Shown here piece after piece: positions 7,249 through 26,417 of a stretch of 64,000 nt of DNA (within the stretch, counting starts at the first letter, position 1; every line of letters begins with the position of its first letter). Origin of the DNA: an uncultured bacterium. Its GTDB lineage: Bacteria; Verrucomicrobiota; Verrucomicrobiia; Verrucomicrobiales; DEV007. The position numbers and the translations under genes were made by a program. Below the pieces are notes generated by a model. That model did no database searches and was not told the DNA's origin. It saw only the letters and a list, made by a program, of their open reading frames with translations. Location of the stretch: the NCBI GenBank assembly GCA_963977015.1, contig CAXBMO010000007.1:64001-128000 (forward strand), read 5' to 3'.

Positions 7249-7557
7249 TTAAATCCCAAGCCCCGGAGGCAGTCCGCCCGTCACCTTGCCCATTTCGTCC
7301 GCCGCCATCTCTTTGCCCTGATCAATTGCCTGTTTCACACCACTCAAAATCAGATCTTCGAGCATTTCCACATCCTCGGGATCGACAACGGCAGGATCAA
7401 TCTTGATTGACAGGACTTCGCCTGCGCCATTGGCCTTTACGGTAATTTTTCCCCCGCCAACACTGGCTTCCACCTCACGGTCGGCCAGCTCCGCCTGAGT
7501 TTTTTGCAGATCCTTTTGCATCTTCTGCATCTGTTTCATCATCTTGTTGATGTTCAT
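7249..7557 (-). CDS. ybaB: YbaB/EbfC nucleoid-associated protein
   Basis: MMKQMQKMQ, GGGKITV, DPEDVEMLEDLI; conserved position after dnaX. Confidence 0.95.
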   Translation of the reverse strand: MNINKMMKQMQKMQKDLQKTQAELADREVEASVGGGKITVKANGAGEVLSIKIDPAVVDPEDVEMLEDLILSGVKQAIDQGKEMAADEMGKVTGGLPPGLGI

Positions 7558-7598: not shown

Positions 7599-7817
7599 TT
7601 AGGCAACTTGAGCCTCGAAAATGCGCAGCGCCTCAGAAATCAGCGGGTCCTGAAAAAATGGGTTGGCAGACTCCATTGGAAGTTCGAGCTGGATGTCTTC
7701 CTCCTGATTCAGTTGCAGGGCAAGCGATTGTGGCTTTCCCAAAGGATCCGAATCAAAGGTAATCACATGCTGATCGGTAGCTTCGTTGAGTTGCTGGTGA
7801 GCGAGAAAAAGTTTCAT
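7599..7817 (-). CDS. 72-aa small protein with a DnaX(tau) C-terminal-like helix and a clamp-binding-like motif
   Basis: Fills the dnaX-ybaB gap on the operon strand. DPLISEALRIFEAQV vs DnaX DPLIQEALRIFEAEV with synonymous codon divergence; QLELPM motif. Confidence 0.8.
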   Translation of the reverse strand: MKLFLAHQQLNEATDQHVITFDSDPLGKPQSLALQLNQEEDIQLELPMESANPFFQDPLISEALRIFEAQVA

Positions 7818-7835
7818 GACCGGGTCGTTGCTAGG

Positions 7836-9725
7836 TTACTTGGTGTTTTCCACCTCAGCTTCAAATATACGAAGTGCTTCCTGAATTAAAGGATCATTCT
7901 TAAATTTCTGCTCATCAACCGGAGGTTCAGCTTCAACAATCTCGGGCTCCGTTGGTTCCTCGGGGGCAGGTTCCGGAGTTCGTTCCTTCTTGGGCGAAGA
8001 CTTTGGCTCCTGAATTCTCGGTGAAGCGGCAACGGCTTCGACGGCGGGCTCTTCGATTTCAGGAAGCTCGGGTTCGGGAATCGAGTCTCGAATTTCGCAC
8101 TGCAAAGTCATTTGGCTGCCACCATGCGCTTCGAGCAGTTCTTCGACGAACGTTTTGCTTTTCTCCCGCATCATCGAATCTCTGGCAAACCGGTTCCCCG
8201 GAGAGAAGCCAATGACGAAATTGCGTCCCGATTGCTCCAGAAATTGGACTCCTTTCGTCCACCCGGACATCAGCGGCCGCTGCGCGTCGATGGTTGCGGA
8301 TACCGCTTTCCAGAGGGCTTCACCACTGAGGTCTCCGGTCGGCACCGGGCCGGCCTTTCTTTCAGCCACGGGTTCGGGCTCGGGTTCGGATTCAGCTTTT
8401 GATGGTTTGGGCGGGTCCGGCTCAAAAGGCGGCGCATCCTCCATTGCCTCAGACTCAGCTGGTCCTTCAATTTTGACCTTCCCATTCGGCTTCTCCGTGG
8501 CCGAAGCCGGCGGACTATCGCTTACTGACTCCTTTTTTTTTACGGGGGCTTTTGAAGTTGGCGCAGCTTCCGTCGGCATTTGGGCGGCGCCATCACTGGC
8601 TTGGTGCAGCATTCCAATCACATCACTGATCGTCATCTCTGCCATGATTTGCATGGCCTTGATCACACCAATCTCAAGATGAAGCCGTTTGTTGGGCGCC
8701 CACTTCATCCTCGTTTCCGTCTCGGCAAAATGGTCGATCAAATTGAGCAATCTTTCCGGCACGGCCTGCTTGGTCTGGGCACGGATTCGATCTGCAATCT
8801 CCGGAGCCAGGTCGGCAAATTCGTTCTTCGGATCAACCAGGGAGATGAGAAGATTCCGCAAATAGCCAATCCAATCGGCCAACAACCGCGAAAGATCCTT
8901 CCCCTTTTCACTCTCGGCGTGAATCGATTCCAACGCGATGGCTGACTTCTTCGTGAGAATGGCGTCGGTCAGGTTGGCAATCGTTTCCAGCGAAGTGAAC
9001 CCGAAGATGTCGAGAACGTTCTCCTCCTTGATGTGCTTCCCGCAAAAGGCAACCAACTGGTCGAGCATGGACTGGGCATCGCGCATCCCGCCATCCGCAC
9101 CTTTGGCAATCGCGTAAGCCGCATTTTCATCGAGCTTGATCTTTTCCTTCTTGGCAATCAACAGAAGATGATCGGCAATGATCTGGGTCGGAATTCTTCG
9201 GAGATCGAAGCGCTGACACCGACTGATGATCGTCGGCAAAATTTTGTTGGGTTCCGTCGTCGCAAAGATGAACTTCACATGCGCAGGAGGTTCTTCGAGC
9301 GTCTTCAACAAAGCGTTGAACGCCGCAGTCGAGAGCATGTGAACCTCGTCAATGTAGTAGATCTTAAATTTGCTGCTGGAAGGCGCGAACTTCACGGTTT
9401 CGCGCAATTCGCGAACCTGCTCGACGCCATTGTTGGAGGCTCCGTCAATTTCCAGAACGTCCAGACTGATCCCCTCCGCGATTTCGCGGCAGAGCTCATG
9501 GTCCGGATCAAAATCCACCTTCGGTCCGTCCGGACAATTCAAGGCCTTCGCGAAAATTCGAGCCGTGGACGTTTTTCCCGTTCCCCGTGGACCGACAAAA
9601 AGATAGGCATGCGCCAAGCGGTCCTGCTCGATCGCGTTTCGCAGCGTACGTACGACGTGATCCTGACCCAGGACGTCGTCAAAGGTCTGGGGGCGATATT
9701 TTCGGGCAAAAACCTGATAACTCAC
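7836..9725 (-). CDS. dnaX: DNA polymerase III subunit tau/gamma
   Basis: ARKYRPQTF, Walker A GPRGTGKT, EIDGASN, IDEVHML, NALLKTLEEPP, SRC motif. Confidence 0.97.
   Translation of the reverse strand: MSYQVFARKYRPQTFDDVLGQDHVVRTLRNAIEQDRLAHAYLFVGPRGTGKTSTARIFAKALNCPDGPKVDFDPDHELCREIAEGISLDVLEIDGASNNGVEQVRELRETVKFAPSSSKFKIYYIDEVHMLSTAAFNALLKTLEEPPAHVKFIFATTEPNKILPTIISRCQRFDLRRIPTQIIADHLLLIAKKEKIKLDENAAYAIAKGADGGMRDAQSMLDQLVAFCGKHIKEENVLDIFGFTSLETIANLTDAILTKKSAIALESIHAESEKGKDLSRLLADWIGYLRNLLISLVDPKNEFADLAPEIADRIRAQTKQAVPERLLNLIDHFAETETRMKWAPNKRLHLEIGVIKAMQIMAEMTISDVIGMLHQASDGAAQMPTEAAPTSKAPVKKKESVSDSPPASATEKPNGKVKIEGPAESEAMEDAPPFEPDPPKPSKAESEPEPEPVAERKAGPVPTGDLSGEALWKAVSATIDAQRPLMSGWTKGVQFLEQSGRNFVIGFSPGNRFARDSMMREKSKTFVEELLEAHGGSQMTLQCEIRDSIPEPELPEIEEPAVEAVAASPRIQEPKSSPKKERTPEPAPEEPTEPEIVEAEPPVDEQKFKNDPLIQEALRIFEAEVENTK
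8494..8541 (-). other. Candidate dnaX frameshift / transcriptional slippage site
   Basis: Coding strand GTA AAA AAA AAG (A9 run 8533-8541). Stops follow quickly in both shifted frames. Downstream UUCG hairpin at 8494-8514. Confidence 0.65.
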
Positions 9726-25844: not shown

Positions 25845-26363
25845 CTAGAGCCTGATTTCCAATCCCATTTTTCTCATCTCCAGCAAGGCCTCCGCATTGC
25901 CAATCGCATCATCGACCGGATGGTGGGTGTGCTTCGTTTTTCGCAAATGCTTGAAGTTTTGCGAGCAGTTTTTCACCATGCCCTTGTAAATCGAGCCCAA
26001 GTTGGAAGACGAATGACCAAACGGGTTCTTCTGCAGAAAGTGGTGGAAGTACCAGTTCACAAATTGCCAATCAAACCCGTTGTTATCGCTGATGAACATC
26101 GGCTGACCTCCCTGATTGGATTCGGCAATCCAGTCCCGAAACTGTTCCATCACCCGCTTCGGATTTTCAAAGCTCTCCGTCTCTCCCCGCGAAAACCCAC
26201 TCACCGCGAGTGCTTCAGGAATCCAGTACTCCGAGATGGGAGAAAGCTGCCCGTAAAACGTGCACCCCAGGCTCGCATCCACACGGACCGCGCCAAGACA
26301 GACCATCGAGTAGTCTCCCGGGATCGGCCCATCCGCCTCAATATCGACCATAAAATAACTCAT
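25845..26363 (-). CDS. DEDDh 3'-5' exo(ribo)nuclease
   Basis: MVDIEADGP, NGFDW, HHPVDDA. Confidence 0.85.
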   Translation of the reverse strand: MSYFMVDIEADGPIPGDYSMVCLGAVRVDASLGCTFYGQLSPISEYWIPEALAVSGFSRGETESFENPKRVMEQFRDWIAESNQGGQPMFISDNNGFDWQFVNWYFHHFLQKNPFGHSSSNLGSIYKGMVKNCSQNFKHLRKTKHTHHPVDDAIGNAEALLEMRKMGLEIRL

Positions 26364-26417
26364 CGTCAAAAGACGCAGCAGATTTGATCGGAATTCAACC
26401 CGATGCTGCTTTCGGGC

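Follow-up and report, generated by a model that had tools for sequence, protein, structure and literature searches.

A candidate two-motif replisome microprotein encoded between dnaX and ybaB in one Verrucomicrobiales genus

Between dnaX and ybaB of an uncultured Verrucomicrobiales bacterium lies a minus-strand open reading frame for a protein of only 72 amino acids, which raises the questions of whether so short a frame is a gene and, if so, what its product does. The frame was analysed in the window, a stretch of 64,000 nucleotides, and in related genomes and in protein and structure collections. Its predicted product combines a hexamer of the type that binds the DnaN sliding clamp with a C-terminal tail resembling that of tau, the product of dnaX. 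We infer from the sequence that this microprotein is likely a two-motif replisome adaptor.

A small gene between dnaX and ybaB

The microprotein gene (P0001), its parts and its two neighbours are laid out in the window as follows.

7836..9725, minus strand: dnaX (tau), 629 aa, directly upstream of the microprotein ORF
7839..7907, minus strand: last 23 dnaX codons (tau tail), AT-rich, with suppressed synonymous change
7599..7817, minus strand: 72-aa microprotein gene P0001, stop codon counted in
7692..7817, minus strand: N-terminal region of the microprotein, residues 1–42, with scattered invariant residues; function unassigned
7674..7691, minus strand: QLELPM, a clamp-binding-type hexamer, residues 43–48, read from the translation
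7650..7673, minus strand: variable linker ESANPFFQ, 8 residues, residues 49–56
7602..7649, minus strand: tau-like C-terminal tail DPLISEALRIFEAQVA, residues 57–72, assigned by hhalign and BLASTP
7249..7557, minus strand: ybaB (nucleoid-associated protein), directly downstream (Pfam YbaB_DNA_bd, E 1.9e-33)

The full translation of the microprotein ORF is MKLFLAHQQLNEATDQHVITFDSDPLGKPQSLALQLNQEEDIQLELPMESANPFFQDPLISEALRIFEAQVA, and its C-terminal half contains EEDI-QLELPM-ESANPFFQ-DPLISEALRIFEAQVA, followed by the stop codon. The upstream gene is matched by the Pfam families DNA_pol3_delta2, DNAX_ATPase_lid and DNA_pol3_gamma3 and by the NCBIfam models TIGR02397 (436.8 bits) and NF004046 (489 bits), both above their cut-offs. 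The dnaX stop is 18 nt from the start of the microprotein ORF, the end of which is 41 nt from ybaB. No minus-strand terminator-like site was found between dnaX and ybaB, and the sole minus-strand promoter-like site of the region lies upstream of dnaX; from these sequence features, the three genes look like a single transcription unit.

This placement is identical in all four genomes of the genus. In a set of 41 genomes (the host and 40 relatives), full-length matches occur in G003 (79% identity), G001 (54%) and G002 (46–47%), and none was found outside the genus; with two exceptions, the remaining matches at E ≤ 0.05 are to the tail inside a DnaX-sized long ORF. Between the four genomes, the microprotein ORF has a saturated pS of 0.66–0.75 (0.66–0.84 for the neighbouring ybaB) and a pN of 0.14–0.37, which is two to five times lower, and the frame is intact in each genome. 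An intact frame at saturated divergence, with pN well below pS, indicates selection at the protein level, and the microprotein ORF is a real gene under purifying selection. At the junction of the two genes (7817–7838 on the minus strand of the window, compared with L004, L005 and L006), it shares the frame of dnaX in three of the four genomes, six sense codons past the dnaX stop, and in G001 it lies in another frame. The shared frame is probably a relic of tandem duplication. Read-through of the dnaX stop codon into the microprotein ORF was considered and is not required, since the ORF is out of frame in G001.

Larger collections give the same narrow distribution. A word-seeded search of 5.8 billion proteins, at lengths of 39–128 aa, found five microprotein homologues in total, and an HMM search of 1.84 billion cluster representatives found one true cluster, the family's own. 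Four long proteins from the profile search (P0006–P0009) were rejected as repeat-sum artefacts: all match unrelated Pfam families, none has an individually significant stretch, and P0006 and P0009 are repeat proteins. A full-length match was also absent from 400 further genomes sampled evenly across the phylum. Judging from these sequence searches, the family is found only in this Verrucomicrobiales genus; the named records with the gene are metagenome-assembled genomes of uncultured Verrucomicrobiales or Verrucomicrobiota, and the sequencing runs containing its DNA carry the label marine metagenome. The microprotein has no match among the families of Pfam, NCBIfam and PHROGs, and its profile drew two chance matches only from the solved structures (E 0.14 and 0.45). 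The ESM Atlas returned just unnamed small-protein clusters that share no more than 156 features, together with a poor model, and is uninformative here.

The 3´ end of dnaX is unusually conserved at the nucleotide level in the genus. Over the last 23 codons, pS between the four genomes is 0.075–0.41, compared with 0.64–0.76 in two other dnaX blocks, and GC content is 0.33–0.39, compared with 0.55–0.63 in the preceding 300 nt (the host with L004, L005 and L006). Twelve DnaX genes of other genera, which have no microprotein ORF, encode the same tail residues with varied codons, and their tail GC is 0.43–0.59 apart from one low-GC genome at 0.33. AT-richness and fixed codons of the tail were seen together in no genus but the one with the microprotein gene. 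Together, the fixed codons and the AT-richness point to a nucleotide-level element conserved just upstream of the microprotein start. It may be a promoter of the microprotein gene or an initiation region free of structure, and the pattern accords with selection for expression of the gene that follows. Folding of the RNA ahead of the microprotein start gave no significant structure (z-score -1.68), and Rfam returned nothing relevant.

The tau-like tail

The first-pass annotation of this DNA had pointed to a tau-like helix, and alignment establishes the tail as a true paralogue of the tau tail, with a helix predicted. When the microprotein was compared with 14 DnaX C-termini of the order by hhalign, residues 48–72 only were matched (probability 96.8%, E 2.4e-10), and in BLASTP the tail is identical to the C-terminus of the host's own DnaX at 14 of 18 positions. 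In the DnaX proteins of the order, the tail follows a variable Pro/Glu-rich linker and has the consensus [F/Y/I]-x-x-D-P-L-I-x-x-A-L-x-I-F-x-A-x-I. Eight residues of the tau tail (D, P, L, I, A, L, F, A) are invariant or nearly so in the order, and five of five microproteins retain every one of them; at the level of sequence, the microprotein appears to follow all the rules of a tau tail. The predicted helix (residues 58–71) is the best-scoring part of the AlphaFold2 model.

The two paralogues are separated by fixed differences, LI[A/S]E versus LIQE and an end in A versus E-x-x-K. Their tail DNA is 71–80% identical among microprotein genes, 84–100% among dnaX genes and 56–69% between the two, and it groups by paralogue, not by genome. 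This grouping and the fixed differences indicate that the copy is older than the split of the four species and was never homogenised; as far as these comparisons tell, the tail duplicate is old and separately maintained.

The likeness to tau is confined to the last 16–19 residues, which are paralogous to the DnaX tail, stand at the extreme C-terminus and are predicted to be helical. In contrast to DnaX, the microprotein lacks the AAA+ module, domain III and the globular domain V, and it has a clamp-type motif where none is conserved upstream of the tail in the 14 DnaX C-termini. Its assignment as a DnaX clamp-loader subunit was rejected, as it is a protein of 72 aa that lacks the AAA+ module and matches no Pfam or NCBIfam model. 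A different borrowing of the tail may have occurred elsewhere: in a genome of another genus (G006, L009:985-2184, plus strand), a 399-aa acidic protein has an internal tau-tail-like segment, DDPEVAEALRLFEAHV, which is 57% identical to microprotein residues 44–71 (E 0.03) and may reflect borrowing of the tau tail or chance.

What the tail could bind is suggested by E. coli tau, whose alpha-binding tail comprises residues from about 624 to 643. Excerpts of two studies describe residues 626–636 of E. coli tau as required for alpha binding (PMC11470591, PMC4703070), and one of them reports that residues 624–636 are thought to fold into a helix upon alpha binding and that changes at L635 and D636 reduce the binding (PMC11470591). 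The host tau tail IQEALRIFEAEVE and the E. coli segment IQTLRRFFDAELD (residues 624–636) are identical at 6 of 13 positions, a weak pairwise similarity (E 0.023), and the microprotein itself gave no BLASTP alignment with E. coli tau. On the polymerase side, host DnaE1 extends about 90 residues beyond its OB domain, in the place occupied in E. coli alpha by the tau-binding domain, as located in an excerpt of PMC4703070. A sequence search of solved structures with the C-terminal 179 aa of DnaX returned 0 matches. Because the similarity to E. coli is weak and no solved structure matches by sequence, the tail may be said to dock on DnaE1 by analogy only.

The QLELPM hexamer and the clamp clients of the genus

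The first-pass annotation placed QLELPM at 7674–7691, after an acidic stretch and eight residues before the tau-like tail. Minus-strand translation gives the motif at this position in the 72-aa ORF, and the layout is exactly as described. The caution that short motifs arise by chance was well placed, as the presence of the hexamer alone is within chance expectation: a crude collection of 4575 long ORFs (2,093,503 aa) contains 143 instances of the pattern QLxLx[LFMI], which corresponds to a chance expectation of about 0.5% per 72-aa protein, and 11 of the stricter QLELx[LFMI].

Conservation of the Gln and the two Leu residues among homologues, on which the proposal had turned, held up on alignment. 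Q43, L44 and L46 are each invariant in five of five homologues, as is QLELP as a whole, and position 6 is M in four and I in one. All five QLELP codons vary synonymously (CAG/CAA, CTC/TTG, GAA/GAG, CTT/CTG/CTC and CCA/CCC/CCG). Outside the tail, 13 of 57 columns are invariant, and the invariant run of five columns has a permutation p of 0.014. The hexamer and the tail are the only two conserved blocks, and the linker ESANPFFQ between them is the most variable segment of the microprotein. It is thus the conservation of QLELP, rather than its presence, that exceeds chance in this alignment. The five homologues are 46–81% identical and three of them are 79–81% identical, so that the conservation argument rests on about three independent lineages.

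The hexamer had also been assigned to a probably disordered setting. An AlphaFold2 model made from the five-sequence alignment is compatible with this: it has helices only at residues 3–12 and 58–71, and residues 13–57 contain no helix or strand except isolated strand or bridge residues at 23 and 29, placed with low confidence. At a mean pLDDT of 55.7, the model agrees with disorder and is no proof of it. In the N-terminal region, the invariant residues are L3, A6, Q8, L10, F21, G27, P29 and E39, and the helix at residues 3–12 is predicted with low confidence. A reading of the whole microprotein as a shrunken DnaX domain V is not supported, as hhalign gives no match of residues 1–47 to the DnaX C-terminal region. 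The N-terminal 42 residues may hold a third contact.

QLELPM resembles known clamp-binding sequences, among them QLSLPL, which is reported as the clamp motif of Hda. The microprotein shares Q1, L2, L4 and P5 with QLSLPL and differs at position 3, which is free, and at position 6. According to excerpts of a 2024 review, canonical clamp motifs have the form Q-aliphatic-x-[L/M]-[F/L] or Q-aliphatic-x-[L/M]-x-[F/L], with Ile tolerated last, and LQLELDF is a phage-display winner for clamp binding (PMC11139829). QLSLPL is used as a tight-binding clamp sequence in PMC12309361 and PMC4703070, as excerpted. QLELPM fits the canonical hexamer at positions 1, 2 and 4, and Met6 is outside the F/L (plus I) set given in the excerpts of PMC11139829; judged by sequence, the microprotein would thus follow three of the four positional rules of the hexameric motif. 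QLELP[M/I] has the same Q-aliphatic-x-L-x-hydrophobic form as QLSLPL and the Pol IV hexamer QLVLGL, but position 6 is Met or Ile, not Leu or Phe, and the hexamer is internal, 24 residues from the C-terminus of a protein with no enzymatic domain.

Pol IV, other likely clamp clients and the DnaN cleft of the host all fit a clamp role for the hexamer. Host Pol IV (Pfam IMS and IMS_C; G000:C24:52375-53427, L034) has the C-terminus GGEQLELEI. Among 24 Pol IV rows in relatives (L065–L088), the EQLELEI ending is present in all four rows of the genus, 16 rows of other genera have Q-motif ends such as QLEMF, QLSLF, QLELF, QLVLPL and QLTLGL, and the other four are fragments, a pseudogene or another paralogue, from which no C-terminus was read. 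As Pol IV ends in QLELEI in this genus, its clamp would already be served by a QLEL-x-aliphatic hexamer. Most sister genera have Pol IV pentamers (QLEMF, QLELF, QLSLF), which makes the QLELEI hexamer a genus-specific switch; the genus with this change of motif type is also the one in which the microprotein arose. RNase HII (208 aa; G000:C11:64753-65379, L029) ends in QLSLPFDEGR, and its QLSLPF, ten residues from the C-terminus, is a near-perfect clamp motif. DnaE1 of the host has an internal QGSLF at 933, near the position of the polymerase clamp motif QADMF of E. coli, given as residues 920–924 in an excerpt of PMC4703070.

The host DnaN is 33% identical to E. coli beta and keeps 14 of the 18 cleft residues given in the excerpts of PMC11139829. 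The cleft differences from E. coli are H175R, R246Q, Y323F and V344M, and the C-terminal MPMR is kept. A second, divergent DnaN-like gene of 515 aa is present at G000:C14:8968-10515 (L090:2469-4016, minus strand). It is 29% identical to DnaN over 349 residues and has a Pfam DNA_pol3_beta N-terminal domain match of 33.4 bits. Its neighbours are a PD-(D/E)XK nuclease gene and a number of small genes lacking annotation, a setting that may represent a mobile or defence island.

Possible roles at the replisome

We tentatively favour, at a little less than an even chance, a reading in which the microprotein is a clamp-to-polymerase tether made of two short linear motifs and largely disordered. It would have arisen in one Verrucomicrobiales genus, where a copy of the 3´ end of dnaX became its tail, and would be made from the same operon as tau. 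QLELP[M/I] would occupy the hydrophobic cleft of the sliding clamp DnaN, subsite II receiving the Gln and the first Leu and subsite I the second Leu and the Met or Ile. The C-terminal amphipathic helix, for its part, would bind DnaE1 at its C-terminal tau-binding region. The microprotein would then join the polymerase tail to a free cleft of the clamp dimer, with no part played by the clamp loader. In the DNA-bound complex of E. coli, the polymerase tail with the tau C-terminal domain adjoins the clamp, as described in an excerpt of PMC4703070, so that a short connector between a free cleft and the polymerase tail is conceivable by analogy. We infer each of DnaN binding, DnaE1 binding, their simultaneity and the physiological effect, and a loader-independent tether would be only one of several outcomes of the same two contacts. 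A fuller version of the proposal is rather doubtful. It would make the lineage-specific microprotein a new replisome accessory subunit, an enzyme-free and loader-independent bridge from the Pol III alpha tail to the second clamp cleft, which would use a near-optimal hexamer and have its synthesis controlled by the AT-rich element in the tau-tail codons.

The same two contacts could instead make the microprotein a competitor that displaces tau from DnaE1, fills clamp clefts or does both; it would tune replisome coupling or restrict Pol IV and other clients, as a brake made in proportion to tau. The tail, which retains all conserved tau-tail residues, should contest the same site, the motif has QLEL in common with Pol IV of the genus, and a protein without the globular domain V of tau cannot replace the other tau contacts. 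In E. coli, overexpression of tau domains IV–V is growth-inhibitory through alpha binding, according to an excerpt of PMC11470591. Co-transcription with dnaX and retention throughout the genus would be odd for an inhibitor, however, and we regard this role as quite unlikely, although the evidence here does not separate it from a tether. An unlikely reading that removes the clamp from the picture is that QLELP[M/I] contributes a strand to a small fold shared with the N-terminal region, or that it contacts some other partner, such as a second surface on DnaE1 or DnaX; its likeness to clamp motifs would in that case be a coincidence. The alternating hydrophobic residues of HVITF, SLALQL and IQLEL could form strands, Met6 is non-canonical, the motif pattern is frequent by chance and the N-terminal region has conserved residues with no assigned role. 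Yet Q, E and P, which are likely to face solvent, are invariant, whereas the other putative strands vary freely; AlphaFold2 shows no sheet, at low confidence; hhalign finds residues 1–47 unrelated to DnaX domain V; and the same QLEL core stands at the C-terminus of Pol IV in the genus.

It is very improbable that the ORF is what a partial dnaX duplication left behind, decaying or untranslated and without a function. Its confinement to one genus would suit a remnant, as would the lack of any RNA data set among the sequencing runs containing the gene and the absence of a Shine-Dalgarno-like sequence upstream in all four genomes of the genus. The missing Shine-Dalgarno sequence is uninformative, however, because such 4-mers are not enriched before the genes of this genome (15.1% before long ORFs compared with 18.4% in an in-gene control, with starts crudely called). 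Against decay stand an ORF that is intact in four of four genomes at saturated pS, with pN two to five times lower, and paralogue-specific residues that have become fixed.

The tether that we favour would work much as the bridging C-terminal part of epsilon (DnaQ), the proofreading subunit, does, though it is assembled from other pieces. In epsilon the tail attaches to the PHP domain of alpha; the tail of the microprotein copies tau, which binds the polymerase C-terminal tail. As described in an excerpt of PMC4703070, E. coli epsilon has the same order of parts, a clamp motif (QTSMAF) in a flexible segment, a linker and a polymerase-binding C-terminal peptide. In contrast to epsilon, the microprotein has no DEDD exonuclease domain and no sequence homology to it, and QLELPM is much nearer to the optimal clamp sequence than QTSMAF. 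An identity as the epsilon proofreading subunit was rejected, since the exonuclease domain is absent and the likeness is one of motif and tail order only. A role as a replacement for epsilon was also dropped, as the presence of RNase_T gives no clean correlation: the host and G001 have sub-threshold matches only, G002 and G003 have clear ones, and RNase_T is above cut-off in 16 of 25 genomes. The lone RNase_T/DnaQ-like match in the 95%-complete host genome lies in the window at 25845–26369 (minus strand), an ORF of 174 aa that scores 23.5 bits, below the Pfam cut-off, and has no clamp motif. From these profile matches, the host replicase may proofread without a canonical epsilon.

B. subtilis YabA, a structured tetramer, is a small clamp-binding hub that binds DnaA. 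Like YabA, the microprotein is small and non-enzymatic and would connect the clamp with a second protein of replication; the two have no homology, and the proposed second partner of the microprotein is the polymerase, not DnaA. Taken singly, clamp-binding motifs and the tau tail are familiar. Their free-standing combination appears to be new, and a full-text literature search found no description of a stand-alone protein with a clamp motif and a tau tail.

The narrow range of the microprotein, one uncultured genus, limits the weight of the finding for now. If the proposed contacts hold, the microprotein would be a natural minimal reagent for competition among clamp, polymerase and tau. If it binds as proposed, the duplication of a 20-residue docking peptide, and the evolution of another next to it, would have let a single genus rewire its replisome.
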